From: Halioglobus sp.
GTDB taxonomy: Bacteria; Pseudomonadota; Gammaproteobacteria; Pseudomonadales; Halieaceae
Direction of reading: 5' to 3'
Length of the DNA: 64,000 nt
Assembly: GCA_039986455.1 (NCBI GenBank)
Contig: JBDWQQ010000151.1
Span: 4,376-68,375, forward strand
The position numbers and the translations under genes are program-made. The notes beneath the pieces are model-generated. The model was given only the letters and a program-made list of their open reading frames with translations. It did not search any database and was not told the DNA's origin. Numbering within the stretch: position 1 is the first letter of the stretch; every line of letters begins with the position of its first letter. Positions 907 to 50,817 of the stretch are shown here, piece by piece.

Positions 907-3900
907 CTACTCTTCGAGGCTGAAAAGCTGGGTATTGCCACCTTTTGCCACCACATTATCAGTGCGGGTTTTCTCAGTCACAAACCGCGACAAATAGTGA
1001 GGACCGCCGGCTTTTGGCCCGGTGCCAGAAAGGCCCTGACCACCAAACGGGTTAACCCCCACCACGGCACCCACCATGTTTCGATTGATATAGGTATTAC
1101 CCACTCGGGTGGCGTTGAACACCTCCCTGGCAAACCCGTCTATTCGACTGTGAATACCCAACGTCAAACCAAACCCAGAAGCGTTAATATCTGCCAGCAC
1201 CTGGGGAATCTCTGACACCTTATAAGTAATGATATGCAAGATAGGGCCGAAGACTTCTTCCGGTAATTGCGAAAGACGCTGAATTTGATAAACCTGCGGG
1301 GCCACAAAATACCCACTTTGGTGAGCATCGCTCAAGGTGCATGCGTGCAGAAGACTGGCCTCACTACGCATGCGCTGCTCATGTCTTTCCAACATTTGTC
1401 GCGCCTTAAGGTCAATCACTGGTCCTATATCTGTACTGAGCGCTGCCGGGTTGCCAATCTTCAACTCATCCATGGCGCCACGCAGCATGTTGATCACGTT
1501 ATCGGCAATGTCTTCCTGTAGGTACAACACGCGCAGTGCACTGCAACGTTGGCCCGCGCTTTGAAATGCCGAAGCGATAACATCGTCCACCACTTGTTCT
1601 GGTAATGCGGTCGCATCGACGAGCATCACGTTGAGCCCACCCGTTTCAGCAATGAGCGGCACAATAGGGCCATCGCGCTCTGCCAACTGACGGTTAATCC
1701 GCTGGGCGGTTTGAGTGCTACCAGTGAACACAACGCCAGAAACTCGAGCGTCGGAGAGCAAAGCCCCACCAATCCTGCCGCCGTCGCCCGGCAACAGGTG
1801 CAACGCATCGGCAGGCACTCCCGCCTCATGCAAAAGCTGAACCGCCCTGCCCGCTATCAAGGGAGTTTGTTCTGCTGGTTTGGCAACCACCGAGTTACCC
1901 GCGGCTAAAGCTGCGGCCACCTGACCCACAAAAATAGCCAGCGGGAAATTCCACGGGCTGATGCAGACAAAGACCCCGCGACCGTGCAACGTCAACTCAT
2001 TCACCTCACCGGTCGGGCCGGGCAGCGCTTGAGGCGTTAGCATATAAGCGCGGCCCTGCTGCGCATAATAGCGACAGAAATCCACGGCCTCACGAACCTC
2101 TGAAAGCGCATCATCAATAGTGCGCCCCGCTTCGGCCACAATCAGCCCGACCAATGACTGGCAGTTGCTCTCCAGCAGGTCTGCGGCTTTTTCCAGGCAT
2201 GCCGCTCGATGCTCTGAACCGGCCTTATCCCAAGCGGCTTGCGAGGCGCTAGCACGCGCCAGAGCAGCGTCAATACTTTGCTCACCGGCTTCCACAACCT
2301 CTCCGACCTGGCTGCCTTGATCTGCGGGATTAATGACCCTTTGAGCGGTGCCGGGAATCAATTGCCCGCCGACAATCGGTGAAACACTCTGGGGGCTTTG
2401 AGCGACCGCCATCACAGCCTGTAATAGCGGTGCAACCTCAAGTGGATCAGCCAGATCAATCCCTTTGGCGTTAAGCCATGGATAGGGCTCGTTGGCGAAG
2501 ATCGTTCGCGGCACTGGTATGCCGCTGTGGCGATGCACGTCATGAGAGCGCGTTTCCACCACTGGGTCCTGCAACAGATCCTCAGGCGCAACCTCCGCAT
2601 CAAGGAAACGATTCACAAAGGAGCTATTGGCTCCATTTTCCAAGAGACGTCGCACCAAATACGGTAGCAAGTCACGGTGATTACCCACCGGCGCATACAC
2701 CCTGACAGACGCATTGGGATGACTGTCCAACACCTCGTCATACAACAAATGCCCCATGCCATGCAGACGTTGGAACTCAAACTGCTTGTCGCCGGCAAGC
2801 TCAAGTATCAACGCTGACGTGTGGGCGTTATGAGTGGCAAACTGCGGAAATATCTCCTCCTGAGCTGACAGCAAAACTTCCGCGCAAGCGTGATAAGAAA
2901 GATCAGTGTGGCACTTGCGAGTGAACACGGGATAGTCAGGCATGCCCTGTTCCTGCGCGTGCTTAATCTCTCCGTCCCAGTAAGCGCCTTTCACCAAGCG
3001 CACCATGAAACGGCGTCCTGAGTCTCGGGCTAGCTCAATTAACCAGCGAGCAACGCCTGTGGCCCGCTTCTGATAGGCCTGTAATACAAAGCCCAAACCA
3101 TCCCAACCGGCAAGTGCCTCATCCCGGGCCAGTGCCGCAAATATATCCAGCGACAGGTCCAGTCGGTCGCACTCTTCTGCATCAATGCTAAACCCAATAC
3201 GCCCCTCCCTGGCCATCAGCGCCAACGCTTTAACGCGAGGTAGTAATTGCTCAAAGACCCGTTGCTTTTGACGGTACTCGTAACGTGCGTGCAGAGCAGA
3301 AAGTTTAACGGAGATACCATTGGCCTCGACTGCACTGGGACTGTTCCCGGCGGCGACGATGCGGCGAATAGCCTCGGAATAGGAATCAAAGTAACGGCGT
3401 GCGTCCTCGTCGGTACGGGCTCCCTCCCCCAGCATGTCGAATGAAAATCGAGTGCCGGGTCGATTGCCACTGGTGCCTTTATGAATCGCTTCTTCGATAG
3501 TACGGCCCAGGACATATTGCCCACCCATAATGCGCATCGCCTGCAATACAGCGCGGCGCACGACTGGCTCACCCAGTGAACTCACCAGGCGTTTCATCCA
3601 TGAACTGGTGTCACCGGTAATATCATCTTCCAAGTGAACGACGCGGCCGGTAAGCATCAAACCCCAAACCGATGCATTCACAAAACGCGAGCCAGACTTG
3701 CCTTTGTGTGAAGCCCAGTCGCCAGACAAAATTTTCTCGGCGATCAGCCTGTCTGCGGTCTCCTCATCGGGCACTCTCAACAAGGACTCAGCAAGGCACA
3801 TCAGCGCTATGCCTTCTTTGTTAGACAGGCCAAACTCCTGCAGGAACGCATCCAGAGTCCCCGCTTTATGACTCATTCCCCGACAGCGCTCCACAAGATT

Positions 3901-8395: not shown

Positions 8396-8556
8396 GGTCT
8401 ATTTTCCTCTCGTGAGCCAGTGCAACTTAAAGCTAGACGATATTCATCCAAGTCGCCAATGAAGGTCTATGCTGTACAAAGCACTGAAGATTAATGCGTG
8501 TTCATTCACTCATTATTGCCAATGCATCTTCCACCTTATCGAGAGGGAACGACATT

Positions 8557-9027
8557 ATGAATTGGGAAGCACTGGGAGCGATTGCGGAACTAATCGGCGG
8601 GCTCGGCGTTATCGTAACACTGGGGTATTTAGCGCTGCAGATCAGGGGAAGCAACCGGGTGGCCAGCGCGCAGTCGCGGCAGTCGATGTCTGCCTTCGCC
8701 ATGAGCATTTCGCGATTTCATGCTGAATTCGCTGATCGCTGTGCCAAAGTGGGGTCCTCAGAGCAACTGACCCCAGGCGATAAAGAATTCCAGTATTGGA
8801 ACCATATGCAGATGCTCACCTACGGGGAATCTTACTATCATCAATTTCAACTGGGGTTGATGCCAGATAGCCACTGGAAAGGGTTCTCGAACTGGATTGA
8901 GGCCTACTCAAACACTAACGGATTTGACGAGTTCTGGGAGCAAGAAGGCAACAGCTTCGCCCTGGACTATTGCGCATGGATAAACGAAAGACTTGTGCAG
9001 CGAGAAAAGCCTAAGAAAAGCGTGTGA
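8557..9027 (+). CDS. Hypothetical N-terminally anchored protein, paralog family A
   Basis: Start at the ATG at 8557, preceded by GAGAGGGAA. N-terminal TM helix followed by YLALQIR, and YHQFQLGLMPDSHW. Related to 14360-14824 and 50818-51330. Confidence 0.6.
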   Translation: MNWEALGAIAELIGGLGVIVTLGYLALQIRGSNRVASAQSRQSMSAFAMSISRFHAEFADRCAKVGSSEQLTPGDKEFQYWNHMQMLTYGESYYHQFQLGLMPDSHWKGFSNWIEAYSNTNGFDEFWEQEGNSFALDYCAWINERLVQREKPKKSV

Positions 9028-9151
9028 TCAAGATGCACATCGGAGTTTCATGAGCACCGCCGTAAACGGCTCAACGATCAGCGACATCAGTGATCTCCAT
9101 GCCCGGGGTTAGCGTAAAGACTTAGCATGCACTTTTTGGAGTTACTACTTC

Positions 9152-9664
9152 ATGTGGAAATACACGGGACAAGAGCGCCCTCCTTTCGCCGAACAGCCTG
9201 CGCCGGGGCAGGAATCCGTCTGGGACTATCCAAGACCCCCCGCATTGGTCGCCAGTGAAGCAGTGGTAGAGATCTTTGCCGGTGAACTGAAGATTGGCAC
9301 TTCAAAGCGGTCTCTGCGTGTATTGGAAACAGCAAGCCCCCCTACTTTCTACCTGCCCGCTGCCGACATCCATTGGGATCGATTGCAACGAGTTGCCGGC
9401 AGTAGTTATTGTGAATGGAAAGGTATGGCCTCTTACTGGGCGCTGGCATCAGCCCCGGGCGAGGGAGCAGTCGGCTGGAGCTATGACTCCCCCAGCACAC
9501 GCTTCGCCGCGATCGATGGGCATATCTCGTTCTACCCCGCGCTAGTGGATTGCAGGGTTAACGGTGAAGCGGTTGAGCCCCAGCCCGGTGGCTTTTATGG
9601 AGGTTGGGTGACCAAAAACATCGCAGGCCCCTTTAAGGGAGGGCCAGGAACAGGACATTGGTAA
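9152..9664 (+). CDS. DUF427 domain protein
   Basis: 170 aa with WDYPRPP, ETASPPTFYLP and CEWKGMASYW, which I recognise as DUF427 motifs. Confidence 0.75.
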   Translation: MWKYTGQERPPFAEQPAPGQESVWDYPRPPALVASEAVVEIFAGELKIGTSKRSLRVLETASPPTFYLPAADIHWDRLQRVAGSSYCEWKGMASYWALASAPGEGAVGWSYDSPSTRFAAIDGHISFYPALVDCRVNGEAVEPQPGGFYGGWVTKNIAGPFKGGPGTGHW

Positions 9665-9666
9665 TC

Positions 9667-9701
9667 GCAGGAGCACACCGCTGTTACCTGAGTGCTCCTG
9701 C
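9667..9701 (+). terminator. Strong hairpin after the DUF427 gene (10-bp stem), no clear T-tract
   Basis: gcaggagcac-N15-gtgctcctgc, starting 3 nt after the stop at 9664. Confidence 0.3.
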
Positions 9702-9768
9702 AATAACGCTTGATTGTGTCTCAAGTCCGCATCTATTCTTAACCAGAATTTTACAGCCAGGAGCTTGA

Positions 9769-10140
9769 ATGATGACGGCCTACGAATACGCAGATTTAGC
9801 CGCCAGTAATTACACCATCAGCTTTACGATTCTGTCGCTGCTCGTTGCGCTTGCCAGCGCCTACTTTGTTGCAGCCTATGTTATGGGTAAATCCTTAAGC
9901 CCACTTCAAGTATTTCTGCTTAATGTTGTCTATGGCCTGTGGATGTTAGGACTCGCCTGGATAGCCACTCGGTTTCTTATCCGCGCTACGGAAATAGGCA
10001 TAATTTCTCGATCGCTTGATGATGGCCAAACGGGAAACGTTTTCGCCTTCGCGGTGTTCGTGCCATCGATTATGATTATCTCAACCTTATTGATCAGCTA
10101 TGGATTCATGTGGAGCATTCGTCACCCGAGCTCAAAATAA
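9769..10140 (+). CDS. Small multi-pass membrane protein, divergent member of paralog family B
   Basis: 123 aa. Shares the layout, AYFVAAYVMGKSLSPLQ and the C-terminal FMWSIRHP with the ORFs at 15553, 16017, 16511 and 50346. Confidence 0.65.
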   Translation: MMTAYEYADLAASNYTISFTILSLLVALASAYFVAAYVMGKSLSPLQVFLLNVVYGLWMLGLAWIATRFLIRATEIGIISRSLDDGQTGNVFAFAVFVPSIMIISTLLISYGFMWSIRHPSSK

Positions 10141-10222
10141 TCCCTCTTTTTAACTGCGATCATCGGTTCCTCCCCCATAGTCTATTTTTAGCAATACATT
10201 TTTTAATGAGGAAAACCTAACA

Positions 10223-10423
10223 GTGAAGTTTTCTACACAACGAAATATCCTGCGCACGTTCCATCTAGCCGGTGCGGCCATTATTGGCACGTACATCTAT
10301 TCGCCATGGAGCAATCTCGAATGGTTTACACTACTCAATCAAGTGATTGTGGTTCCTTTGCTGTCACTCTCTGGTATATGGATGTGGAAGGGCCAAAGCA
10401 TCAAGGCTGCGTTAAAGCATTAG
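10223..10423 (+). CDS. Hypothetical small membrane protein (66 aa)
   Basis: GTG start with GAGGAAAA upstream and two hydrophobic segments. No family recognised. Confidence 0.4.
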   Translation: MKFSTQRNILRTFHLAGAAIIGTYIYSPWSNLEWFTLLNQVIVVPLLSLSGIWMWKGQSIKAALKH

Positions 10424-10547
10424 AAAAATGCACTCAACAATGCTCATCTGGGCAATCTTGAGCCACTTCAGTGTTTACAAAATTTCTCACTCCATTGAGG
10501 CAGTACTGGCTATGATCGCCTCGGTCGGGTTGTCGGTTTTTCATAAA

Positions 10548-10976
10548 CTACGCTGCATATAACGCCTTGAATTCTTCCCAGCCCAATTCGCCAACCGTAT
10601 TTCCATCATCATCCATCAGTTCGTAACAAGATCCCCCGCCGCTGCGAATACTGAACAAGATCACTGCGTCCACATCACCGCCACCTTCGCGATGCACTTC
10701 CTCGCTTGCAGGGCTGACGGTGAAACGGCCTGTAGGGCGGACTTCTTTTAGTTGTCCATCAGCTTCGTACAGGCGATGCTCGCCCTGAATCACTAACATA
10801 TTGTTTGGCGCTGTGTGGCGGTGTAACAATATTTTCTCGCCGGCCGCCATTCGAAGGAGCACATCTACCACTTTGTTTTCTTCATCAAGATCGAGAATGT
10901 GATACCAGAGATGATCGACACCCGGCAGTTGCTTCCAATCGATAGTATCGTTGTCCAGACATTGAAAAGCCGACAT
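10548..10976 (-). CDS. Cupin domain protein (ChrR-like cupin)
   Basis: 142 aa with a cupin beta-barrel pattern (HRHTAPNNMLVIQGEH). Confidence 0.65.
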   Translation of the reverse strand: MSAFQCLDNDTIDWKQLPGVDHLWYHILDLDEENKVVDVLLRMAAGEKILLHRHTAPNNMLVIQGEHRLYEADGQLKEVRPTGRFTVSPASEEVHREGGGDVDAVILFSIRSGGGSCYELMDDDGNTVGELGWEEFKALYAA

Positions 10977-11209
10977 GGTTGATATCCTTATTTAATGGCG
11001 TTGTTGTGCCAATTTACCGCGCTAAATGCACGTCGTAAAGCTACCCGGGGGTGCGAAAGTCGCTATATCGATCCAGCCATTTCATTGCCTTGGCCCGCAA
11101 GGGGTTGCCAGACATTCAAACGCGTCGATTTTGACTATGCTATCGTCTATATTCCTGTCATAACGCAGTACAACCGTGAGCATCTTTCGAGGATAGCTAA
11201 GCATTGAGT

Positions 11210-11857
11210 ATGAGTGAAAAAAATACAGGCAGCATTGGTGGAAACGTTATCGCCGGCACTCTTTTTCTGTCGATTGGCTACGCGATTGTGCGCTACCACA
11301 TCGCCGGAAACGTACCCTGGGATCAGTTTTCACTGTTTATCCTCAATAAGGGCCTATGCCTGGCAGCCTTCATATTGCTAACGTTCAATTTTGCACTTGG
11401 ACCCGGTAAAAATATTGGCCTGCCCGTGCCGCCTTCCTGGCTGAGTGCCAGAAAATCCTTTGGAATGACTGGCTTCCTGCTGATTCTTATTCATGCGCTT
11501 ATCAGTTTTATGCTGTTCTCGTCTCCCTACTACGGGAAGTTCTTCGGATCGGAAGGTACGCTCACAGCAGTAGCGAGTGTGAGCATGCTGGCAGGTATTC
11601 TCGGTTTCGTTTTTCTCTGGGCCTACAATCTCAGCTTTCAAACCAAACTGAGCGAAGATGCCGCGTTTATAGAATTTGTGACATCCCGCCGCGTTCTAAT
11701 TTGGGCCCTTTCACTCGGAGGCTTGCACCTCGCCTTTATGGGATTCTCCGGGTGGCTCAAACCTCAGGGATGGCATGGGGGGCTACCGCCTATCAGCCTG
11801 GTGGCTTTTGCGTTTTTCATCGTTGGTTATATTCTCAACTTGCTTGGCCGAGAATAA
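11210..11857 (+). CDS. Multi-pass membrane protein, ferric-reductase-like / MsrQ-like
   Basis: About 215 aa, 5-6 TM segments with conserved His in TM helices (LILIHALISF, GGLHLAFMG). The family call is tentative. Confidence 0.5.
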   Translation: MSEKNTGSIGGNVIAGTLFLSIGYAIVRYHIAGNVPWDQFSLFILNKGLCLAAFILLTFNFALGPGKNIGLPVPPSWLSARKSFGMTGFLLILIHALISFMLFSSPYYGKFFGSEGTLTAVASVSMLAGILGFVFLWAYNLSFQTKLSEDAAFIEFVTSRRVLIWALSLGGLHLAFMGFSGWLKPQGWHGGLPPISLVAFAFFIVGYILNLLGRE

Positions 11858-11925
11858 TTTACTTTCCAGAGAATACGCCCAGGCTGGCAACGTTAAGAGC
11901 CAGTAAAAGCAGATGAATCGGCATA

Positions 11926-12414
11926 ATGACTATAAATTGGAGAGCGCGAATGAGATTACCCTCGTTAATACTGTTAAGCATGCTCGTTGTAACGCCTGTT
12001 CTGGCCCAGAGTTCAGCCTCTTCAGATAGCGTGGCTATTCAAGAAGCAGTCATGAAGGTGTTACAAGACTACATGAAGCCTTTCAGCAGTGCGCAGGCGC
12101 TGGATATCGAAGCGTGGGAGCGTTCGATTCACTTCCCGCACTATCGCTTATCACGGGGGAAAATGACGATTCAAAGCGCGCCTGGAGAATTTTCTCTTGA
12201 ATCTCTCAGGCAAGCGCTGGGAGAGGATTGGGATCACAGCAAGTGGCAGAAAAAGCACATCGTTCACTTATCCGAGTCGAAGGTGCATGTTGATACGCGA
12301 TTTGCACGCTTTCGCAAAGACGGTTCTGTCATCGCCAGTTACGATTCGCTCTATGTTCTCACTAAGGAAGACGGGAGATGGGGGGTGAAGATGCGCTCTA
12401 CTATGGCGCATTAA
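11926..12414 (+). CDS. Secreted NTF2-like protein, unknown function
   Basis: Signal peptide MRLPSLILLSMLVVTPVLAQS (alternative start 11950). Size and sequence pattern look NTF2/SnoaL-like. Confidence 0.5.
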   Translation: MTINWRARMRLPSLILLSMLVVTPVLAQSSASSDSVAIQEAVMKVLQDYMKPFSSAQALDIEAWERSIHFPHYRLSRGKMTIQSAPGEFSLESLRQALGEDWDHSKWQKKHIVHLSESKVHVDTRFARFRKDGSVIASYDSLYVLTKEDGRWGVKMRSTMAH

Positions 12415-12515
12415 CGCCGCTAGTACTTTTAACGCAAGGTCTAACGCGGAATCGGTACGAATAGGCGCAGAGTCGGCAGCACTTTAGTTTTAATTCAGAG
12501 AATAGAGTCAGCTTC

Positions 12516-12950
12516 ATGGAAGAATATTGGAAAGCCTCCATAGGAAAGAAGTTCGATTATTTTGGACCCAAATTCCTCGCCATAGAAAACGGTAAGCATT
12601 TATGGGGGGCTTGGAACACTTCTGCCTTGGTCTTTGGCCCGATGTGGATGGCTAACCGTCAGATACCGATGCGGCGCGTTAGATGGCGAGTTTTTGTTTG
12701 TGCTCTTGCTTGCCTGTTCGCCTATGACTATCTTCCGATTCCGCTAAATCTAACCGTATGCAGTATTCTTTATATCTATACTTTCCCGCTTCGCGCAAAC
12801 GTCATTTACAAGGCATGCATAGAAAAATGCGTACAAGAAAATTCGCATTTAAATGAATTGGAACTAAAGAATTTATTGGCCTCCAAGTTTAAAACTGATA
12901 TCGAAGAGGGTAATGAAAGGTTTACGGCATGGCGAAAGCCTTGGGTCTAA
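12516..12950 (+). CDS. DUF2628-like membrane protein
   Basis: 144 aa; GAWNTSALVFGPMWMANRQ plus TM segments resemble DUF2628. Followed directly by a complete junction repeat. Confidence 0.45.
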   Translation: MEEYWKASIGKKFDYFGPKFLAIENGKHLWGAWNTSALVFGPMWMANRQIPMRRVRWRVFVCALACLFAYDYLPIPLNLTVCSILYIYTFPLRANVIYKACIEKCVQENSHLNELELKNLLASKFKTDIEEGNERFTAWRKPWV

Positions 12951-13007
12951 TGTCTGTTCTTGAAGCCCAGGCTACGGTCAAGAAGGTCAGAATTTCTGCG
13001 AGATATC

Positions 13008-13097
13008 GTCGCCTTTGAGGTGATAGCGGACATTTCCATCGCAGATCGAACCAGGCTTAATAACGTCCACTCTCGCCTACATGCGGTCTATTGGTTT
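13008..13097 (+). repeat. Junction repeat, complete copy (hairpin 1 - spacer - hairpin 2 - tail)
   Basis: gtcgcc-tttgaggtgata-gcggac / 33-nt spacer ending aataac / gtccac-tctcgcctacat-gcggtc / tattggttt. Confidence 0.8.
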
Positions 13098-13289
13098 AGG
13101 ATGATGAGTTCAGGATACAGACTTGTATGTATGTTATTTGAGTCAAAAAGATATAAGGAACTGATTTCATGCTCGCTTTCAATTTAGTGAACCTTACATA
13201 CTAGGAATCGGTGTTATATAGACCGTTATGTGTATGTACTTTTTATGTGCAATCAGAAATTATTTTTATATTGAAGAAAAGGAAAAACA

Positions 13290-14177
13290 ATGAAACTGAG
13301 CTCTACTAGAAAAGCCTTACTCCCCTTTCTAGCTCTGTTTAGCGTTGCCTGCGTTGGTCAAACTACACTCCCTACTTTTGAAGGCCCATACTTAGGGCAA
13401 AAGACGCCTAGCTCTACTCCAACTCCTTTTGGCGCTGGCGTTGTATCAACAGATGGCTACGAGTATGGCGGTGTTTTTACTCTCGACATGAGCGAGTTTT
13501 ATTATATAAAAGCAGAAAAAGGTACACGGCGGCAAAATTTTATCGTATATCGCGAAAAAGAAGGCAAATGGTACGGCGAAGTAATGTCTAAAAGACTCGG
13601 ACAACCAGCTATATCTCCAGACGGAAATACCATGCATTTGGGAAGACGTTATCTAGAGCGCAACGACCAAGGTTGGTCCGAACCTAAGAATCTCGATTTA
13701 CCTTTTACCGACATCTCTATAATGCGACTTACCTCCTCTTCAAGTGGCACCTATTTTTTCGATACGTGGGACGAATCCAATAAAGAATTTCCAATCAGGT
13801 ACTCTCGAATTATAGATGGCAAGTATCAGGAGCCACAAAATCTAAGCAAAGAAATTAATACAGGAGCACAACTAAATCACCCTTATATCGCTCCCGATGA
13901 ATCATATTTAATCTGGGATGCGATTCGGGAAGACGGTTTTGGAGACTCCGATCTTTACATCAGCTATCGACAAAAAGATGGATCGTGGGGCGAAGCTATT
14001 AATTTAGGGGAAAAAATAAATACTAAAGCGTGGGATGCAGCTGGATATGTTACGCCAGATGGAGAATATTTTTTCTTCAACCGGATGATCAACTCAGGCG
14101 TAAACAATGAACTGCCAAATGTAGATATCTTTTGGGTAAAAGCAGATTTTATCGAAAAATTAAGACCAAAGCCGTAA
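13290..14177 (+). CDS. Lipoprotein with TolB-like PD40 beta-propeller repeats
   Basis: Signal plus lipobox (LFSVAC). Recurrent PD40-type motifs ISPDGNTM, IAPDESYLIW, VTPDGEYFFF. The gene is visibly more AT-rich than its surroundings. Confidence 0.65.
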   Translation: MKLSSTRKALLPFLALFSVACVGQTTLPTFEGPYLGQKTPSSTPTPFGAGVVSTDGYEYGGVFTLDMSEFYYIKAEKGTRRQNFIVYREKEGKWYGEVMSKRLGQPAISPDGNTMHLGRRYLERNDQGWSEPKNLDLPFTDISIMRLTSSSSGTYFFDTWDESNKEFPIRYSRIIDGKYQEPQNLSKEINTGAQLNHPYIAPDESYLIWDAIREDGFGDSDLYISYRQKDGSWGEAINLGEKINTKAWDAAGYVTPDGEYFFFNRMINSGVNNELPNVDIFWVKADFIEKLRPKP

Positions 14178-14232
14178 TGCATAGCACAAGAAAAGGCCGT
14201 CGGATGCCGCGCACCGCTGCCTGAGCGTTAGT

Positions 14233-14330
14233 GACCGCTATGAGGTGGCAGCGGACATGAGCAACCCCAAGGACGATTCATGCACTCTAACGTCCGCTTT
14301 CGCCTAATAGAGGACATAGGTCTATTCTTG
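14233..14330 (+). repeat. Junction repeat, complete copy
   Basis: gaccgc-tatgaggtggca-gcggac / 35-nt spacer ending ctctaac / gtccgc-tttcgcctaatag-aggac / ataggtctattcttg. Confidence 0.9.
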
Positions 14331-14359
14331 TAGCGGGCAATAGAGTTGAGAGCAAGAAT

Positions 14360-14824
14360 ATGCAGGAACTGACAATTCAAGACTTGGGAAGTATCGGCGA
14401 ACTTTTAGCGGCTATTGCTACTATAGCCACCCTCGCCTATTTAGCAGCACAGATACGCCAAAATACCCACACTGTAAGAGCAGCAACAACTACCGCGCAT
14501 ACTGAGTCAGTAAGCGTCTTTTCACGACTCCTTGGGCAGAGCCAGGAATTGAGTGATCTATATTTTACAGGCCTGGCTGGCGAGGTCGAACTAAGTGAAT
14601 CTCAGCAACGCCAATTTCATATGCTTTTGAGCGGTTTTCTCATGGCAATTCAACAAGCGTACCTTCTTGATGAGGAAGGTATTGTTCATCCAGAGATCAA
14701 GGCGTATCACGCAGAAACGATCGATTGGCTAGCAGAACAGCCCGGATTTACTCCTTTCTGGGACGCATGGGGAAAAACTTTTCCACCAAGCTTCCGACAC
14801 TATATCGAGGGTAAACTGAACTGA
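14360..14824 (+). CDS. Hypothetical N-terminally anchored protein, paralog family A
   Basis: 154 aa, N-terminal IGELLAAIATIATLAYLAAQIRQN. Flanked by junction repeats on both sides. Confidence 0.6.
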   Translation: MQELTIQDLGSIGELLAAIATIATLAYLAAQIRQNTHTVRAATTTAHTESVSVFSRLLGQSQELSDLYFTGLAGEVELSESQQRQFHMLLSGFLMAIQQAYLLDEEGIVHPEIKAYHAETIDWLAEQPGFTPFWDAWGKTFPPSFRHYIEGKLN

Positions 14825-14835
14825 CGCATTCCAAT

Positions 14836-14880
14836 TCGAAACTGTCCGCTTTCGCCTAATAGCAGACTTAGGTCTATCAT
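14836..14880 (+). repeat. Junction repeat, hairpin 2 plus tail only
   Basis: cgaaact / gtccgc-tttcgcctaatag-cagac / ttaggtctatcat; no hairpin 1 after the upstream stop. Confidence 0.85.
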
Positions 14881-14911
14881 CAAGTCACAACAAATTTGAT
14901 AGAGAACAGCT

Positions 14912-15427
14912 ATGCTTTTTGAAGCAACCGAGCGCACGTATCAACTAGATCTTGCTCAGTTTTCCAATGTGGAGTATGCAATGGCCTCGATCTACGAGAG
15001 TCAGGGCTTTTCTACGATTCATCACGATTACTACCTGTTCCATGCGTCTGCAAAGACCAAATACCCAGAGAATGAGCAAGTGCTAAAAGATACGATAGGG
15101 CGCGAACGATTGTCAGCACTTAGAGACATGTGCCGCGCCCTGTATCCTTTAGATGCGGGCCCGGGGCAGAGACCTGAGCAACCAGACTTGTTCGTTTTTC
15201 GCCCGGGCGGTGAGTTCTTTTTTTCTGAGGTAAAACGGAAGAAGACAGGAGACTACTTGCGCGCACCGCAAATGGTCGGTATTTCTCTCATAAAGCAATT
15301 TCTATCGGTTACCACTGAGCTCGCAACTGTTATCGATGAAAGTGAAAAGGAACCGCTCGCACTTCGAACATATCAATGGGTATGGCCTGCAGTGCAAGAA
15401 ACGGGCTTTCATAAAGTCGAAATTTAG
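14912..15427 (+). CDS. PD-(D/E)xK nuclease-fold protein, VRR-NUC-like
   Basis: 171 aa; EQPDLFVFRPGGEFFFSEVKRKKTGDYLRAPQ matches the D...E-x-K ... Q signature of VRR-NUC domains. The last base of the stop codon TAG is the first base of the repeat stem. Confidence 0.55.
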   Translation: MLFEATERTYQLDLAQFSNVEYAMASIYESQGFSTIHHDYYLFHASAKTKYPENEQVLKDTIGRERLSALRDMCRALYPLDAGPGQRPEQPDLFVFRPGGEFFFSEVKRKKTGDYLRAPQMVGISLIKQFLSVTTELATVIDESEKEPLALRTYQWVWPAVQETGFHKVEI

Positions 15428-15520
15428 TCCGCTTTGAGGTGAAAGCGGACAGTACCCGCCCAAGGCCAAATCAGACTCCCTAACGCCCGCTTTCGCCTAA
15501 TGGCTGACTTAGGAGTATGC
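15427..15520 (+). repeat. Junction repeat, complete copy
   Basis: gtccgc-tttgaggtgaaa-gcggac / 34-nt spacer ending ccctaac / gcccgc-tttcgcctaatg-gctgac / ttaggagtatgc. Confidence 0.9.
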
Positions 15521-15552
15521 TTTGTTAATCTTATAATGAAGAGGGTCGAGCA

Positions 15553-15930
15553 TTGACGATACAGGACTACCTGGCAATATTCTGGGATGCACAGGAAGTA
15601 GGCCTGGCAGCATTCATGATGTACCTATCGGTTGTCAGTGGGTATTTAGTAGTTGCATACCTCGTCGGTGCGAAACTCGATCGATTTCAAACTTCGTTTA
15701 TATCCTGCGTATTCGTTATGTTCGCCCTTTACCCCCTATGGGGTGTTGTCGAGTACTGGACCTCTGCCGAGGAAGCGCGGCAGGCTCTTATAGAGCTAAA
15801 AGCCTTAGAGAAGGTCGAGCTTAATCATCTAGGTATAAACGCGGCTATTCCAGCACTACCGATGGGCCTTCTTGGCATAGCTGGATCACTAGTTTTCATG
15901 TGGGATGTTCGTCGAAAGCAGGGACTGTAG
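15553..15930 (+). CDS. Small multi-pass membrane protein, paralog family B
   Basis: TTG start with AGAGGG upstream; SGYLVVAYLVGAKL, C-terminal FMWDVRRKQGL. Confidence 0.7.
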   Translation: MTIQDYLAIFWDAQEVGLAAFMMYLSVVSGYLVVAYLVGAKLDRFQTSFISCVFVMFALYPLWGVVEYWTSAEEARQALIELKALEKVELNHLGINAAIPALPMGLLGIAGSLVFMWDVRRKQGL

Positions 15931-15944
15931 TGGCCGAAATTGCA

Positions 15945-15982
15945 ACCGCCCCCCTTGAGATGAAAGCGGACTTCGGTCTATC
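15945..15982 (+). repeat. Junction repeat, collapsed hybrid copy
   Basis: ccttgagatgaaa-gcggac (hairpin 1 right half) joined directly to the tail ttcggtctatc; the spacer and hairpin 2 are missing. Confidence 0.75.
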
Positions 15983-16016
15983 TTTATCGGAGGACTTACA
16001 ATAAGGAACTGATCAT

Positions 16017-16385
16017 ATGACCGAGTATGAATTGGAGGACGCACTAACTTCAACAACTGTGGCCTCGCTCGAGGCATTTAGTATGTACGTAACTATCTTG
16101 GCTAGCTACTTGGTAGTTGCATATCTTGCTGGGAGCAAGCTAACAACCCAGCAAATGTTTATTGTCTCTGTGCTTTTTGCCGTTTCATCCCTTTTAGCAA
16201 CTTGGTCTGCATTCAGCTATATGGAGCGCTCGATTCCCTTCGCGGATGCTCTTGAGTTACTTAACCCTGAACGCCGGTACGGGGCTCAACCTAGTACCCA
16301 ATATTGGATGCTAACCTTAATGCTACTGGGCGTAGGTGCCTCTCTTAAATTCATGTGGGATGTTCGACACCCCAAGGCGGAGTGA
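16017..16385 (+). CDS. Small multi-pass membrane protein, paralog family B
   Basis: MTEYELED..., SYLVVAYLAGSKL, C-terminal KFMWDVRHPKAE. The stop TGA overlaps the first stem of the repeat. Confidence 0.75.
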   Translation: MTEYELEDALTSTTVASLEAFSMYVTILASYLVVAYLAGSKLTTQQMFIVSVLFAVSSLLATWSAFSYMERSIPFADALELLNPERRYGAQPSTQYWMLTLMLLGVGASLKFMWDVRHPKAE

Positions 16386-16479
16386 CCGCCTAGAGGTGAA
16401 GGCGGACATTACGTGCCCCGGGGCCGATTCATCCCCTCTAACGTCCGCTTTCGCCTAATAGCGGACATGTGTCTATCAT
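16384..16479 (+). repeat. Junction repeat, complete copy (best reference copy)
   Basis: gaccgcc-tagaggtgaa-ggcggac / attacgtgccccggggccgattcatcccctctaac / gtccgc-tttcgcctaata-gcggac / atgtgtctatcat. Confidence 0.95.
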
Positions 16480-16510
16480 AGTCGAAGGCTTATCGATTGG
16501 GAGCAAGGTC

Positions 16511-16879
16511 ATGACTGAAGCGGAGCTACTTGAAGCAGCCAGCAATAACTGGTCAGACACCATTAGTTTACTAACACTGTTCATTAGTGTCATGAGTGGC
16601 TATTTGGTCGTCGCCTATCTAGTCGGCAAGGAACTCAAAACTTCACAAGTCGTGCTTGTAAATTTCCTTTATGGCGCATTTATTAGCTTTTGCTTATTTG
16701 CTATCTATCAAATGTCCGCTACAGCAGTGGAGCACGGTATTCTGGCTAGCGATTTATCAACTCAGCGTTCCAACAGGCCGCAGACTTGGATTCCCATTGT
16801 GTTCCTTGTAATCATGCTTCCAATGATTTTGGCGAGCTTCAAATTTATGTGGGACATCAGACACCCAAAGGCTGAATGA
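16511..16879 (+). CDS. Small multi-pass membrane protein, paralog family B
   Basis: MTEAELLE..., SGYLVVAYLVGKEL, C-terminal KFMWDIRHPKAE. The track start at 16469 lies inside the repeat tail, so I prefer the ATG at 16511. Confidence 0.75.
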   Translation: MTEAELLEAASNNWSDTISLLTLFISVMSGYLVVAYLVGKELKTSQVVLVNFLYGAFISFCLFAIYQMSATAVEHGILASDLSTQRSNRPQTWIPIVFLVIMLPMILASFKFMWDIRHPKAE

Positions 16880-16987
16880 CGGCTTAGAGGTGAAAGCGGA
16901 CATTACGTTGCGCGGTAACCTTCTTGTCGCCCCGGGTCATAAAATTGGCGTTTCCAGTCATTTCTGAAGAACCTCCCTCCCTCTAAC
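16878..16987 (+). repeat. Junction repeat, hairpin 1 plus long spacer, hairpin 2 absent
   Basis: gacggc-ttagaggtgaaa-gcggac-attacg, about 85-nt spacer containing cgccccgggtc and ending ccctctaac. Confidence 0.8.
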
Positions 16988-17020
16988 ATGGCTTCATAAA
17001 CCAATCAGGGAGGAAAGCGC

Positions 17021-17158
17021 ATGGTCGATAGAAAATATTGGGTAGCACTCTGCTTAAGCATTATGATGTGGGCCGCACAACCTGCGTCTGCAGCGTATGA
17101 GGCTGAAAACGGTTCTTTAAGTTACTGCCCTTCGGCAGTACACATGGATTTTAGATAG
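17021..17158 (+). CDS. Candidate 45-aa secreted peptide
   Basis: Own translation: MVDRKYWVALCLSIMMWAAQPASAAYEAENGSLSYCPSAVHMDFR, with strong GGGAGGAAAG upstream. It sits where a cassette ORF is expected. Below the track cutoff. Confidence 0.25.
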   Translation: MVDRKYWVALCLSIMMWAAQPASAAYEAENGSLSYCPSAVHMDFR

Positions 17159-17194
17159 TTGGAAGAAATGTCCAGCATGGTCGTAGATTCTAAA

Positions 17195-17218
17195 GTCCGC
17201 TTTGAGCTGAAAACCGAC
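17195..17218 (+). repeat. Junction repeat, hairpin-1-type singleton
   Basis: gtccgc-tttgagctgaaaa-ccgac. Confidence 0.7.
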
Positions 17219-17356
17219 ACTCTAAGACAACTTCACCTCTTGTGAATTTGCCGGCGATGCTAGATGCATTTTCAGCACTAGGCTGCCCAGAATAGCTAAA
17301 ACCAAATCTCTGCCGAAACCGGGGTGGCCGGATTTCGTGTTGGGTTCGATCACACC

Positions 17357-18970
17357 TCAAGGAACACGCTGGTAGGTGTTGCCGAAGTCGTCGGTGATGA
17401 CCTCGGCTATGCCGTCCACCGTGAGGAGTTCGAAGTCGTCCTTCACAAGGGCCACATGGAATGACCAGCCCTCTGGCAGAACTAGTCTTTGCCCTAACCG
17501 CTGCAGATCAACCAGTTGCTGGTTCCGGTCTTGACCTTGGGTGAAAGACTGCATCCGATAGCGGACACCGTACGGGTCTTCCAATTCGTAGACCTGACGA
17601 CCGGCCACGTAGTGAAACACCGTGTCGCGGCTCACCCTGTTAATTTGGTAAGGCGCCGCTTCACCGATCCCTACCCCCGGGGCTACATCCACGCTGGCAG
17701 CCAGGCGCATGAGGATACCGCCGAAGTTCTCTATCACAGGCGGTCCCGGTGCCATCTCGCTTTCGATGAGATCCAGTACCCAGAAGCGAACCCCGTTGAG
17801 CCCGGCCCCCAGGGCGCCGTAATCGATGGCGACCTGCTCTGCGTCCAGCGCATCCCACAGGTCCTGGGGACAGGTGTTGAGGAGCATCGAGTTATACACG
17901 TCTGCTCGCAGGCCAGTGCTGCCGGGATAGAACAGCAGCATCTCGCAATAGCGAAAATCAAACAGTGGCCCTGTAACCGGCGCGGGCAGTACCGTACCTG
18001 GTACTTCACTGGCATACACCAGAGTGTTCTCCACACCCGCCTCTTTGTATACGAGGGCCTCCTCGGCCTGGGGGTTGAGCGAGAAGGCATTGAGAAAGGC
18101 GTCGCGGCTTGCGTAGCGCACAATCGCCGCCTGCTCCCACTCGACTCTCTCGTTGGTCAGCGTGACCGCTACCGGCATCAGGATATCCGGCAAAGAGTTG
18201 TAACGTAGCAGGGTGGGCAGGATGGCATTGCCATAGACCTCGCTGGCCTCCTCCCCGCTTAAGTCGGTATCGCGTCCGTCGATGAAAGTGGCCTTATCGT
18301 AAAAGTCGATCAGGTTCACCATCCAGAACGGGCTGGGCGCATCGCTGACTACCATGTCAACAACCGCCGCGGTATTGGAATCGAAGCCAGCCCCCTCCCC
18401 GCTTCCCGCGCCGCCGGCACTAGCCAGCAGGGCCAGAGCCTCGTCGTTATCGAGATTCTGCAGCGCCGGATCAAAGTAGCTGCCGCCGGGTTTGATGGGA
18501 AGTAACTCCTCTTCACCGAGCACCCAGGCGTGGTCGTCGCTGGCCGAGGCCAGGGTATTCATCAGGTCGGTGAACGTCGGCGTATCAATGGCGCTGAGCA
18601 GTACCATCATGCTGGGAAATTCAATCACGCGGGTCTGGTTCAGTGAACGATCGCCGACCAACTGGTCGAACACCTGGCTGCGAAAGCGCTCGCTTGCGCC
18701 GATGCTTTCCCACAGGGCGGCGGCCTCCTCTTCGTAGCGCGCAAAAGTCTCGCTGTCGGTGACCGACATCAGTTGCACGAGCGTCACCGGCCTGCCAGTG
18801 TCCGCGTAGTCTAACAGGCCCTGCACGCCGGCCTCGGTGAAATAGGACTGCAGTTCGCCAAACTGCTCAAGCAGCCGATGAGCTTCACTTTTGATGTTGT
18901 CTGAGCTATCGCTGCAACCACTTACCAGTAGCAGGCACAGAACCGCGCCAATCCGCGCAATGGGTTTCAT
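17357..18970 (-). CDS. Lipoprotein of unknown function (537 aa)
   Basis: Lipoprotein signal MKPIARIGAVLCLLLVSGC, long uninterrupted ORF, no family recognised. It is the only minus-strand gene in array 1. Confidence 0.8.
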   Translation of the reverse strand: MKPIARIGAVLCLLLVSGCSDSSDNIKSEAHRLLEQFGELQSYFTEAGVQGLLDYADTGRPVTLVQLMSVTDSETFARYEEEAAALWESIGASERFRSQVFDQLVGDRSLNQTRVIEFPSMMVLLSAIDTPTFTDLMNTLASASDDHAWVLGEEELLPIKPGGSYFDPALQNLDNDEALALLASAGGAGSGEGAGFDSNTAAVVDMVVSDAPSPFWMVNLIDFYDKATFIDGRDTDLSGEEASEVYGNAILPTLLRYNSLPDILMPVAVTLTNERVEWEQAAIVRYASRDAFLNAFSLNPQAEEALVYKEAGVENTLVYASEVPGTVLPAPVTGPLFDFRYCEMLLFYPGSTGLRADVYNSMLLNTCPQDLWDALDAEQVAIDYGALGAGLNGVRFWVLDLIESEMAPGPPVIENFGGILMRLAASVDVAPGVGIGEAAPYQINRVSRDTVFHYVAGRQVYELEDPYGVRYRMQSFTQGQDRNQQLVDLQRLGQRLVLPEGWSFHVALVKDDFELLTVDGIAEVITDDFGNTYQRVP

Positions 18971-19086
18971 GCGTGTTCCTTATCTTTATTAGAATGCGTT
19001 ATGTATAGGGTCGAGTATTGCCAAATAAACTCGCTGATTCTAGCAATTTATGCGAATTTACTTGCCGGCATGAACTGTCGGGCTTT

Positions 19087-19171
19087 TTAACGTTCGCTTT
19101 CGCCTAATAGCGGGCATTACACACTCGGCCACCAAGGTCCGCTTTCGCCCATTTCGAGACATTTGGTTTAC
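19087..19171 (+). repeat. Junction repeat, two hairpin-2-type units in tandem
   Basis: tttaac / gttcgc-tttcgcctaatag-cgggc / attacacactcggccaccaag / gtccgc-tttcgcccatttc-gagac / atttggtttac. Confidence 0.8.
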
Positions 19172-19274
19172 ACTGTGGACGAACCCGAGACGAACAGCAT
19201 TTATCGGTCAATGGGCCTATGAGTCGCGAACTAGGCATTTTTCGATAATCCTCACCCTAGAACCGGAGAGCACA

Positions 19275-20558
19275 ATGATTCGACTACTCTTTTGCCTGCT
19301 AATGGGCATCTCCCTAATTGCATCGGCCGGCACCAGCAGCGTCATTCGAGCAGCGGCGCTGCTAGATGTAGAAAGCGGGCGTATATTGGAGAACCCTGTA
19401 GTTCTGGTAGAGGACGATAAAATCGTCGATATAAATCCCAAAACGCTCCCGGATGACGCTACCAATATCGACCTTCCCGGTATGACATTACTACCAGGTT
19501 TCATGGACGCGCACGTGCACTTGGCGATCTCCGATGCCCAGTTTCGGAAAACACTGCTCACAGAGAATTCCGCCAGTGCTGCTCTGCGCGCGGCACAATC
19601 CGCCAGCGAAACGCTCATGGGCGGATTCACCACGGTTCGCGACCTGGGACAGGTAAATCCCAGCATTGAGCTGATTACTGTTTCGGTTGCTGACGCTATA
19701 GCTAAAGGACAGATCATTGGGCCCGAGGTCATCGCTTCTGGACATTCCATTGGCGTCAACGGCGGCCATGTAGACCCGACCATGGGCTACGCGGAGGGTC
19801 GCTTTGAACGAGACTGGCGCTTTGGTATCGCCGACGGAACCGACGAAGCCACGAAAGCCACTCGATATCAGATCAAACATGGCGCTAAAGTGATAAAGAT
19901 TTCCGCCACTGCGGGTGTACTGTCATTGGAATCCAGTGTTGGCGCGCAACAAATGACGGACCAAGAGATGCGTGCAGTCGTTGAAGAGGCAGCGCGACAC
20001 GGTATGAAAGTGGCTGCCCATGCACATGGTGCCGATGGAATCATGGCAGCCGTACTAGCCGGCGTGGCCTCTATTGAGCACGGCTCAATGATCAATAGTG
20101 ACATCCTTCGCCAGATGAAGAAAAAAGGCACTTACCTTGTGCCCACTACCGGCTTACTGGACACCATAGAGCTGGAGGGGCTGGAGCCCGAAGTGCAGGC
20201 AAAGGCGAACCACATTCTACCGCTAGCCGGCAAAAACCTGCGCGAAGCAATCAAGGCGGGGGCCCTCATTGCGTTGGGGACCGATGCTCCCCTGGTGCCC
20301 CACGGCAAAAATGCTTATGAGTTTCAGGCCATGGTCGAGCGTGGCATGACACCGCTGCAATCAATCCAGTCTGGCACTATTCGAACTGCAGACCTGTTTG
20401 GTCTAGAAGACCGTGGGAAGTTAGCAAAAGGGCTTCGCGCAGACATTGTCGCCGTTCCAGGAAATCCGCTAGAAGACATCACACTGCTTCAACACGTAGG
20501 CTTCGTAATGAAAGCCGGCGTAATCTTTCGCCATGCATCGCCTCCCCCAGCTAACTGA
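19275..20558 (+). CDS. Secreted metal-dependent amidohydrolase family protein
   Basis: Signal peptide, then PGFMDAHVHL, HAHG and GTDAP, typical of the amidohydrolase superfamily. Confidence 0.85.
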   Translation: MIRLLFCLLMGISLIASAGTSSVIRAAALLDVESGRILENPVVLVEDDKIVDINPKTLPDDATNIDLPGMTLLPGFMDAHVHLAISDAQFRKTLLTENSASAALRAAQSASETLMGGFTTVRDLGQVNPSIELITVSVADAIAKGQIIGPEVIASGHSIGVNGGHVDPTMGYAEGRFERDWRFGIADGTDEATKATRYQIKHGAKVIKISATAGVLSLESSVGAQQMTDQEMRAVVEEAARHGMKVAAHAHGADGIMAAVLAGVASIEHGSMINSDILRQMKKKGTYLVPTTGLLDTIELEGLEPEVQAKANHILPLAGKNLREAIKAGALIALGTDAPLVPHGKNAYEFQAMVERGMTPLQSIQSGTIRTADLFGLEDRGKLAKGLRADIVAVPGNPLEDITLLQHVGFVMKAGVIFRHASPPPAN

Positions 20559-46761: not shown

Positions 46762-46785
46762 GACATTGTTGTTAGAACTCCAACT

Positions 46786-46882
46786 AGAATACACCGATGC
46801 TCGGAATTAGGCGAAAGCGGTCATTAGGCCCTGAAGCGGCCCTGAGAAGATAATGTGCGTTTTTCCCTCAAAGAAGCTGAGG
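46786..46882 (-). repeat. Junction repeat, complete but decayed copy
   Basis: + strand reads gaatacaccgatgctcggaattaggcgaaagcggtc-attaggccc...gtgcgtttttccctcaaagaagctgagg. Confidence 0.7.
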
Positions 46883-46922
46883 AAGTATCTAACATACTGG
46901 GAGAAAAGAATTTGGTTTGGGC

Positions 46923-46941
46923 CGCCAGCTTCCTGCTGGCG
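46923..46941 (-). terminator. Hairpin downstream of mscL, weak terminator candidate
   Basis: cgccagc-ttcct-gctggcg. A T-rich run appears only about 15 nt further on the minus strand. Confidence 0.3.
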
Positions 46942-46959
46942 ACCTAATGGCGACGAGCT

Positions 46960-47415
46960 CTAGGCTCCGCCCAGTTCAGATGTGCAGTTAGGACACCTTG
47001 TGGCCTTGATAGCTATACTCGTTAAGCAATGAGGGCACTCTTTTTCAGTAGGCTCAGCCGCCGGTTCCTCTTCTTCCGCTTGCATATTATTAATACTCCT
47101 TATGAGCAAAAATACTGCGAAAGCAACAATCAGAAAGCTTATCACTGCATTGATAAAGACACCGTAGCTAATAGTGACCGCACCGGCCTCTTGGGCGATT
47201 GCCAAGGTTGCGTAGGGACCTGCGTTAGCGCCCTCTTTTAATGTGATAAATAAATCGGAAAAATCGACCCCACCTAAAAGTAATCCTACGGGAGGCATAA
47301 TGACGTCTGCGACCAGGCTCTTCACGATGGTTCCGAACGCGCCGCCTATGATTATGCCCACTGCCATGTCGACGACATTTCCTCGCATTGCAAATTTTTT
47401 AAACTCTTCTAACAT
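46960..47415 (-). CDS. mscL: Large-conductance mechanosensitive channel MscL with a C-terminal CxxC-X10-CxxC extension
   Basis: [28 protein letters not shown]..., ends ...[27 protein letters not shown]. Confidence 0.9.
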
Positions 47416-47758
47416 TAAACACTCTCCTAAACGCTAATTTATTCCTATTCCCAATTAGGGGACAGGCTAGGCAACCAAGCTATAGATTTTTATCCAAGCC
47501 CTCCACGGGTATGCCTGAATAATTGTAGACCATTGGATCGATATTGGGCGAAAGTATGCCCTAGCGAGAAATTTCTATTCATGATTGCTTTTTCTCCCGC
47601 TGGGCTAAACGTACCAATGCCCCGAGAATTGTGACCGTCCGGCTGCGGTCACCTTATTAACACTCAGTTCCACCTATAAAACTGTAAATTAGCGCCGTAA
47701 TCTAAAAACAGCATGCGAAATTTCGTAGCTTTCAACCTCCTTACGCGCAAGGTGTTGC

Positions 47759-48943: not shown

Positions 48944-48999
48944 TTACTTAGCAACTCTTTAACAGCGCCTACTAGATGAAATGTTAACCCCGTGAATGA

Positions 49000-50800: not shown

Positions 50801-50817
50801 GTAAATGCCTCGTAACG

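Follow-up and report, generated by a model that had tools for sequence, protein, structure and literature searches.

Chromosomal arrays of small genes in Halieaceae share a composite junction site that may belong to a separate gene-shuffling system

The window analyzed here, a stretch of 64,000 nucleotides from Halioglobus sp., carries at least two arrays of small genes in which the genes are separated by copies of one ~100-bp repeat, which we call the junction unit. We think it probable, with some reserve, that such arrays are stacks of mobile gene cassettes on the chromosome, and that the site joining the cassettes is a composite recombination site specific to Halieaceae. What is observed is the anatomy of the unit, its restriction to one lineage, its clustering, its co-orientation with genes, the presence of the same genes and units in different contexts, and one single-cassette insertion/deletion with a crossover in site B of the unit. 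The unit is a new site family in a cassette array, which works like the integron and pdif systems and is a member of neither. Literature searches on the site sequences, on Halioglobus integrons, and on integron- or dif-like chromosomal modules found no earlier description, and the arrays may represent a separate gene-shuffling system that has not been described before.

Integrons are the textbook route by which bacteria stockpile and shuffle single genes, and to our knowledge the pdif modules of Acinetobacter are the only other well-studied system based on short recombination sites. A third system, if true, would mean that cassette platforms evolved repeatedly, and its hosts would be abundant coastal marine bacteria (the OM60/NOR5 clade) with their own site type and no linked integrase. 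Tools that rely on attC or IntI, such as IntegronFinder, do not see such a system, and counts of environmental cassettes are therefore probably too low. Another question that the system raises is which recombinase reads GTCCGCTTT-N6-AAAGCGGAC, and its cassettes already include ordinary housekeeping-type genes (MscL, an amidohydrolase, and a short-chain dehydrogenase).

Anatomy of the junction unit

The layout of the unit was derived from an alignment of 89 distinct full units and from position counts on 144 A and 170 B sites. A full unit of ~100 bp consists of site A, a spacer, site B, and a tail, in that order. Site A reads ATGTCCGCTTT-GAGGTG-AAAGCGGACAT, and site B, ACGTCCGCTTT-CGCCTA-ATAGCGGACAT, is an inverted A with another 6-bp center; each is 28 bp long, with an 11-bp arm on either side of the center (11-6-11 geometry). 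The spacer between them has a median length of 34 nt and the consensus ATTACCCGCCCCAGGGCCGAATCAGGCCCTCTAAC, while the tail, ATnGGTCTATnCTT, is a conserved leader ending in a ribosome-binding site, with TTGGAGG frequent directly upstream of the start codon. The spacer-facing halves (center plus arm), GAGGTGAAAGCGGAC and GTCCGCTTTCGCCTA, are ~83 to 98% conserved per position, except for one A/T-polymorphic position in A; the gene-facing outer arms are degenerate (~44 to 84%). In 30 of 66 scorable A sites, the stop codon of the upstream open reading frame (ORF) falls within A, at one of three TGA positions.

Folded as single strands, the units are at best weakly better than shuffled sequences (z scores from -2.5 to +0.6), RNAalifold returned no consensus structure for the 89 units, and the outer arms of one unit are complementary at 5.10 of 10 positions, compared with 5.12 of 10 in shuffled pairs. 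Taken together, these results indicate that the unit is conserved at the level of sequence, as protein-binding sites are. An Rfam scan of the window gave no match. The near-palindromic arms suggest that a single recombinase species would read them.

Two further ideas about the unit were set aside. The spacer flanks form mirror-like classes (ATT...AAC and GTT...AAT), as might arise by inversion of the spacer between A and B; reverse-complement alignment scored below forward alignment, which leaves two forward subfamilies. Pairing of the left arm of A with the right arm of B in the same cassette, rather than in the same unit, gave a weak signal (5.48 versus 5.28 pairs, p ~0.04) that is not decisive.

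Unit coordinates and E values in the window (Table 1) rest mainly on a profile search (nhmmer) with the 89-unit profile. Matches to the 24-nt cores GTCCGCTTTCGCCTAATAGCGGAC and GTCCGCTTTGAGGTGAAAGCGGAC with at most 3 mismatches number 9 and 6, respectively, compared with 0.00 in shuffled sequence. An earlier note on this DNA, made from the letters alone, had placed one repeat family in every intergenic gap from 12.95 to 19.2 kb, and the profile recovered all nine copies that it listed (13.0 to 19.2 kb): four full units, three A halves, one B half, and one pair of B copies, with a copy in each gap from 12.95 to 19.3 kb. The overlaps with stop codons that it described at 15425-27, 16383-85, and 16877-79 are confirmed on the sequence, and the units end 30 to 35 nt before the following start codon, within the 20 to 40 nt that it gave. 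One of its copies, 16878-16987, proved shorter: the repeat there is an A half at 16869-16907, and the remainder is not repeat, except for a spacer-end remnant, CCCTCTAAC, at ~16977-16985. The hybrid junction at 15942-15985 has the look of an A-by-B deletion product.

The position of the unit between stop and start codons could also point to a module that serves expression or insulation and plays no part in mobility. In it, A would act as a 3' stabilizer or terminator, and B plus tail as a promoter and ribosome-binding leader, the whole being spread only via cassettes. The overlap of A with stop codons suits this idea, as does the tail, which has a TATnCT hexamer and often TTGGAGG ~10 nt upstream of the start codon. 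However, the array holds no more promoter-like or terminator-like matches than chance predicts (7 versus 7.1 and 5 versus 6.9, respectively), no T run follows the hairpins, and the fixed crossover points described below and the inverted pair of sites are left unexplained, so that we hold this reading to be very improbable.

Distribution of the units and movement of genes with them

Comparison loci are labeled with L and a number. The B motif was searched for in 185,579 species, each represented by one genome, and was found at 43 loci, ~33 of them in Halieaceae (Halioglobus metagenome-assembled genomes [MAGs], Seongchinamella marina, S. unica, and Haliea); those outside Halieaceae are singletons in unrelated taxa, as chance predicts. 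Halieaceae genomes hold 4 to 12 exact B-motif matches each and, by extrapolation, tens of sites. A metagenome scan added 16 loci, mostly on short contigs and with no adjoining recombinase, and matches in viral contigs were at chance level only. In 8-kb blocks around the B-motif matches there are ~5 units on average (179 places in total), so the repeat family is strongly clustered. Of 140 consecutive unit pairs, only 3 differ in orientation; the gaps between units have a median of 597 bp, and in 114 of 133 gaps (86%) the longest ORF points the same way as the units. A and B sites alternate in 204 of 257 steps (79%), with 111 steps from A to B (median 34 nt) and 93 from B to A (median 628 nt); the nonalternating steps are 37 B to B and 16 A to A. 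The arrays lie on Mb-scale Halieaceae contigs and are bordered by chromosomal metabolic genes, and many small arrays are scattered over the chromosome. No large gene family recurs beside them, except a TPR protein in 3 loci.

Genes and units are found together in new surroundings. Five cassettes of the window have counterparts elsewhere at 80 to 91% identity (Table 1), and for orientation, the closest relatives of the window genome share ~87% nucleotide identity in backbone genes. The arrays themselves occupy different chromosomal positions among relatives; that of L037, for example, adjoins the equivalent of window position 55812, which is array-free in the window. Between L021 (S. marina) and L032 (a Halioglobus MAG), two blocks that are 98 to 99.8% identical are arranged differently.

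The clearest rearrangement is seen between L014 and L023, whose flanks are 91% identical: where L014 has one unit, L023 has two, with an additional ~860-bp cassette between them. The unit of L014 equals the upstream L023 unit through A, an unusual spacer, and B as far as CGCCT, and equals the downstream L023 unit from the right arm of B onward. Because the L014 unit switches its L023 parent between CGCCT and the right arm of B, the crossover is placed at the edge of the B center. The end of a 97.8%-identical block shared by L021 and L032 falls exactly after CGCCTA, and the breaks observed lie after CGCCTA and before ATAGCGGAC, GGAGCGGAC, and similar sequences. Some further 3' boundaries lie right after A, and a block shared by L009 and L035 starts just past one A and stops where the next A ends. 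These boundaries, together with the hybrid junction at 15942-15985, fit crossovers at the center edge of either A or B.

Several observations weigh against stacks of mobile cassettes with a recombination site of their own. The L014/L023 comparison is the single case of a clean insertion/deletion that was found, and elsewhere the identity of the site cores across all units blurs the boundaries. Half of all junctions are partial, with A only or B only. The spacers of the L021/L032 block are 71% identical, compared with 97.8% for the flanking genes, and thus diverge much faster than the genes, which crossovers at both A and B would explain. No recombinase was identified in the window or within the ~360 kb of array-bearing loci. 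General homologous or short-homology recombination between repeats of ~100 bp that are ~75 to 80% similar is also possible.

The last point leads to repetitive extragenic palindromic (REP) sequences and their composite forms, bacterial interspersed mosaic elements (BIMEs) and REP doublets forming hairpins (REPINs). The units would then be palindromes of this kind, modeled on E. coli BIME-1 or Pseudomonas REPINs (two inverted palindromes plus linker), copied by a REP-associated tyrosine transposase (RAYT) or kept for a role in mRNA or the nucleoid, and genes would be shuffled only incidentally, through homologous recombination between copies. The likeness is real: like these elements, the unit is a lineage-specific dimer of inverted imperfect palindromes, here ~35 nt apart, where published linkers measure 20 to 100 nt, and it lies right past stop codons with no adjoining transposase (PMC3116915, PMC3733652). 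Conserved spacers are on record for REP dimers, which occasionally also cluster (PMC3733652), and the lack of a linked recombinase among our findings also suits a REP origin. A RAYT gene did not turn up in the ORF scans of the window. However, the units number tens rather than hundreds per genome, are almost all confined to arrays, and are absent from the backbone intergenic gaps of the window; their strict one-directional orientation matches that of the genes, which symmetric REPINs do not require, and genes travel with them. Nor do they obey the GTAG and CGTC definitions, which call for AT-starting stems of 8 to 9 bp, loops of 4 to 5 nt, and a CCA tail: the stem containing (C/T)GTC does not begin with AT, the loops are of 6 nt, and no CCA tail is present. 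The invariant cores are 15 nt long, which is short for RecA-dependent exchange. According to the earlier note, a repeat present at hundreds of intergenic sites regardless of gene type, or an identical gene order in close relatives, would make this a generic REP/BIME element; we find tens of copies clustered in arrays, and relatives that vary at the level of single cassettes. We therefore regard a REP-type origin as unlikely.

Relation to integrons and pdif modules, and a possible mechanism

The earlier note proposed a sedentary chromosomal integron array or a CALIN, that is, a cluster of attC sites lacking an integrase (Cury et al. 2016, PMC4889954). The cassette-type organization stands. As in integrons and CALINs, one-directional arrays hold small, unrelated, mostly promoterless-looking genes of low GC content. 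Likewise, behind each gene stands a composite palindrome, imperfect and ~100 bp long, from which the gene may take its stop codon; crossovers fall close to the 3' end of this site, single cassettes distinguish relatives, and no integrase adjoins the array. The four-box layout (outer, inner, inner, and outer arm) parallels the two "simple sites" of the 59-base element, the crossover falling on the inner side of the final box, and GCCTAAT at the B center resembles the integron core GCCTAAC. One difference is that many small arrays are scattered on the chromosome, at least two of them in these 64 kb.

The identity of the sites as attC does not stand. We built a covariance model, home-made rather than that of IntegronFinder, from real attCs of class 1 integrons on eight plasmids, of which 7 were used, with the accepted R''/L''/L'/R' pairing. 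The model recovers every training attC and also the held-out attCs of aadA16 (64.8 bits) and aac(6')-29b (60.7 bits), yet gave no match to any unit at an E value of ≤10 in ~364 kb from 51 sources, and none in the window with filters off. The outer boxes RYYYAAC and GTTRRRY are lacking in the unit, whose outer arms are GTCCGCT and AGCGGAC; the observed breaks show no G|TT at the crossover, and the conserved AAC and GTT of the unit border the loop rather than the stem base. Whereas attC conserves the outer R'' and R' boxes with AAC and GTT, the unit has GTCCGC arms and 6-bp centers, with invariant inner and degenerate outer arms. The junction repeat is thus rejected as a canonical attC, and since a CALIN is defined by attC sites, membership in that family is not supported; the analogy of organization holds.

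The same model recovered one genuine attC in a Halieaceae array, at 3701-3775 (+) of L014 (Halioglobus sp. MAG JBDXFZ010000146.1; 31.5 bits). Its R'' box, ATTTAAC, shares bases with the TAA stop codon of a SnoaL/DUF4440-like gene; the R' box is GTTAGGT. A Halieaceae A-spacer-B unit begins 14 nt downstream of this attC, so that one module of the L014 array is a true integron cassette, and integron-type cassettes therefore circulate in the lineage. This could favor the view that the units are themselves divergent attCs of true integron cassettes (CALINs), recombined as folded single strands by an IntI encoded elsewhere. Against it stand the blindness of the model to every unit, the missing G|TT, the loop position of AAC and GTT, and outer arms that are no more complementary than shuffled ones. 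Single-strand folding of the units is also weak, although weak folding speaks neither for nor against recombination as such. A tblastn search with IntI1 (the query being 100% identical to annotated IntI1) found no match in the window or in 63 loci. In our judgment, divergent attCs are a decidedly improbable explanation.

The earlier note had seen no integrase at array 1, and none is in sight in the window: among the ~75 window ORFs scanned (Pfam, with NCBIfam on a subset), which comprise ordinary metabolic and small cassette genes, there is no integrase or transposase. A 77-residue C-terminal remnant of a tyrosine recombinase was found at L010 1561-1794 (+), ~150 nt past the last array site and convergent with the array. 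It was judged to be unrelated to the arrays; its relatives are short fragments or genes on short contigs, and the contexts in L044 and L045 look like genomic islands with defense genes.

The closest parallel in site geometry is with the pdif modules of Acinetobacter, which are acted on by XerC/XerD and have 28-bp sites of 11-6-11 layout with one conserved and one variable arm (PMC13141974, PMC6449649). A pdif array is an alternation of two kinds of module, and two neighboring modules flanked by direct sites can be excised together (PMC13141974). Here, too, alternating site orientation yields two alternating modules, namely gene modules bounded by variable arms and ~35-bp spacers bounded by conserved arms; and, as with the pdif C+D pair, an adjacent module pair bounded by direct sites would be excisable, modules fuse upon site loss, and the recombinase is not encoded by the modules. 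Unlike pdif modules, which Rep_3 plasmids carry, the Halieaceae arrays are chromosomal; their second kind of module is in nearly every case a very short spacer without a gene, and the genes are nearly all co-oriented. Compared by eye with the gammaproteobacterial dif consensus, the unit site agrees at ~7 of 28 positions, the chance level. As the arms bear no evident likeness to this consensus, the host XerCD is not the obvious enzyme. Another partial parallel is with Neisseria intergenic mosaic elements, in which dRS3 sequences, clustered CGTC-type repeats (PMC3733652), flank RS units: clustered short inverted repeats delimit exchangeable modules and serve recombination or integration. Those modules are 50 to 150 bp long and noncoding, and belong to another sequence family and lineage.

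For stacks of mobile cassettes, the following mechanism would fit. The GTCCGC arms would be bound by a recombinase, most likely of the tyrosine class, whose gene would lie elsewhere in the genome, and strand exchange would take place at the edge of the 6-bp center. A direct pair of the same type (B with B or A with A) would bracket one gene module and one spacer module, and the bracketed pair could be excised or inserted as a circle, which would account for both kinds of boundary. With gene modules bounded by weak arms and ~35-bp spacers by strong arms, the outcome would be one-directional, integron-like arrays. We favor action in trans on double-stranded substrates; an integron-like route through folded strands is possible. 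More tentatively, and with the doubts somewhat the stronger, the arrays could be a third cassette platform separate from integrons and from Xer/pdif, made up of many small chromosomal arrays with paired inverted 28-bp GTCCGC-armed sites and served by a dedicated trans-acting recombinase, and absorbing integron cassettes such as the one marked by the L014 attC.

Array genes and their surroundings in the window

Table 1. Junction units, cassette genes, and counterparts of window cassettes in other loci (coordinates refer to the window)
Feature	Location	Strand	Details
Full junction unit 1	13001-13098	+	A 13008-13031, spacer, degenerate B 13065-13088; nhmmer E 1e-20; pattern match
Full junction unit 2	14227-14332	+	A 14233-14256, B 14292-14315, tail GGTCTATTCTT; nhmmer E 9e-27
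Junction with site B and tail only	14836-14880	+	B 14844-14867; nhmmer E 4e-9
Full junction unit 4	15421-15527	+	A 15427-15450 perfect, B 15485-15508; nhmmer E 3e-28
Hybrid junction	15942-15985	+	A left arm and center joined directly to B right arm and tail; profile match 15942-15973, E 5e-4
Full junction unit 6	16375-16484	+	A 16384-16407 with compensated arm change, B 16443-16466 perfect; nhmmer E 8e-28
Junction with site A only	16869-16907	+	Site B lost; nhmmer E 5e-8
Junction with site A only	17189-17221	+	nhmmer E 1e-3; pattern match
Two B-type copies	19078-19174	+	19078-19119 (B 19092-19115) E 4e-8; 19127-19174 (B ~19137-19160) E 5e-6
Probable older part of array 1	8460-12950	+	Small, mostly co-oriented genes, lower GC, no statistically detectable units
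PD40-repeat lipoprotein-like cassette gene, AT-rich	13290-14177	+	Pfam PD40
154-residue cassette gene, N-terminal membrane helix	14360-14824	+	No family match
171-residue cassette gene	14912-15427	+	No family match; TAG stop gives first base of site A
Membrane-protein paralog family (…FMWDVR…)	15553-15930	+	blastp cluster of 5 window paralogs
Membrane-protein paralog	16017-16385	+	blastp cluster
Membrane-protein paralog	16469-16879	+	Probable ATG at 16512; blastp cluster
537-residue high-GC gene, DUF1330 domain	17357-18970	-	Opposite strand; between A-only and B-only junctions
Amidohydrolase	19275-20558	+	Pfam; blastp cluster
Array 2	46778-51440	-	Same repeat family, co-oriented with small genes; additional to the array 1 account in the earlier note
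Array 2 units	51332-51440, 50745-50809 (B only), 50254-50357, 49456-49559, 48415-48510, 46778-46873	-	Pattern and profile
Re-contexted cassette: PD40 gene and unit	L006		87% identity; different context
Re-contexted cassette: membrane-protein gene 16017-16385 and unit	L042		91% identity; different context
Re-contexted cassette: GNAT	L037		80% identity; different neighbors
Re-contexted cassette: SnoaL	L016		90% identity; different neighbors
Re-contexted cassette: MscL	L032		80% identity; different neighbors

Both arrays have a GC content of 41 to 49%, compared with 52 to 55% in the backbone, and pattern and profile searches found zero units in the ~45 kb of metabolic backbone of the window. The cargo is small and heterogeneous (GNAT, SnoaL, GFA, RibD_C, cupin, DUF427, and many ORFs without a family). 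A PD-(D/E)xK nuclease that the earlier note saw among it has no Pfam or NCBIfam support. Of the two paralog families mentioned there, one is solid and the other depends on a 30-residue match. The solid family is a ~125-residue membrane protein with five window paralogs across both arrays (9769-10140, 15553-15930, 16017-16385, 16469-16879, and 50346-50720), which end in FMW-x-(V/I)RHP(K) and have no Pfam or NCBIfam family. The amidohydrolase at 19275-20558 is probably the final cassette of array 1, since its homolog lies between two units of L036 (2493-2589 and 4131-4220).

On the left, the earlier note had array 1 reaching back to about 8.4 kb by way of decayed tails at 9.1, 9.7, and 10.2 kb. 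These tails were not borne out (profile E values of >1 and a negative search for the tail motif), whereas gene content supports a reach to ~8.5 kb: ORF 9769-10140 belongs to the membrane-protein family, and a homolog of ORF 8494-9027 is located inside the L041 array.

The genes between the units of array 2 are a 170-residue gene, a membrane-protein paralog, RibD_C, SpoIIAA-like, GNAT, and MscL genes; immediately upstream, beyond the coordinates of the array, are GFA and SnoaL cassettes (51474-52436). The MscL gene (46960-47415, -) has units on both sides here and in L032, with different neighbors, and a homolog of the short-chain dehydrogenase gene (58529-59359, -) lies between units in L016. 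The housekeeping-type genes MscL, amidohydrolase, and short-chain dehydrogenase behave as cassettes. Between MscL and the unit of the GNAT cassette is ~1 kb of AT-rich DNA (47416-48410, GC 45%) without an ORF of at least 100 residues. Extra single hairpins of a related type, GCCGCTTTCGACGTCAAAAGCGGAC and CCTCGCTTTCGACTATAAGCGGGCC, occur just downstream of two array 2 units, at 50216-50240 (-) and 49423-49447 (-); in other loci such hairpins are recurrently accompanied by a variant tail, TTTCTGCTATGGTATG.

A reverse transcriptase of 343 residues is encoded directly after a B site in both L021 (332-1363, +) and L032 (7224-8000, +) and is 99.8% identical between S. marina and the Halioglobus MAG. 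Its best family is the group II intron reverse transcriptase/maturase (118 bits, below the cutoff), followed by Drt3a. Because Rfam found no group II intron RNA domains beside it, it is probably a stand-alone enzyme, perhaps of the defense type, carried as a cassette.

Farther to the right, window positions 59523-63803 hold a run of small genes, mostly on the minus strand and of lower GC content (two glyoxalase-fold, DUF2306, SNase, and SnoaL genes), in which the profile detects no unit; the run could be what is left of a third array that has decayed fully. The equivalent of window position 59479 adjoins an array in L016. tRNA or tmRNA genes are present in 7 of 37 array-bearing loci (L003, L005, L012, L021, L024, L040, and L042), a frequency of perhaps 2 times that expected by chance, which hints that some arrays lie near hot spots of island integration.

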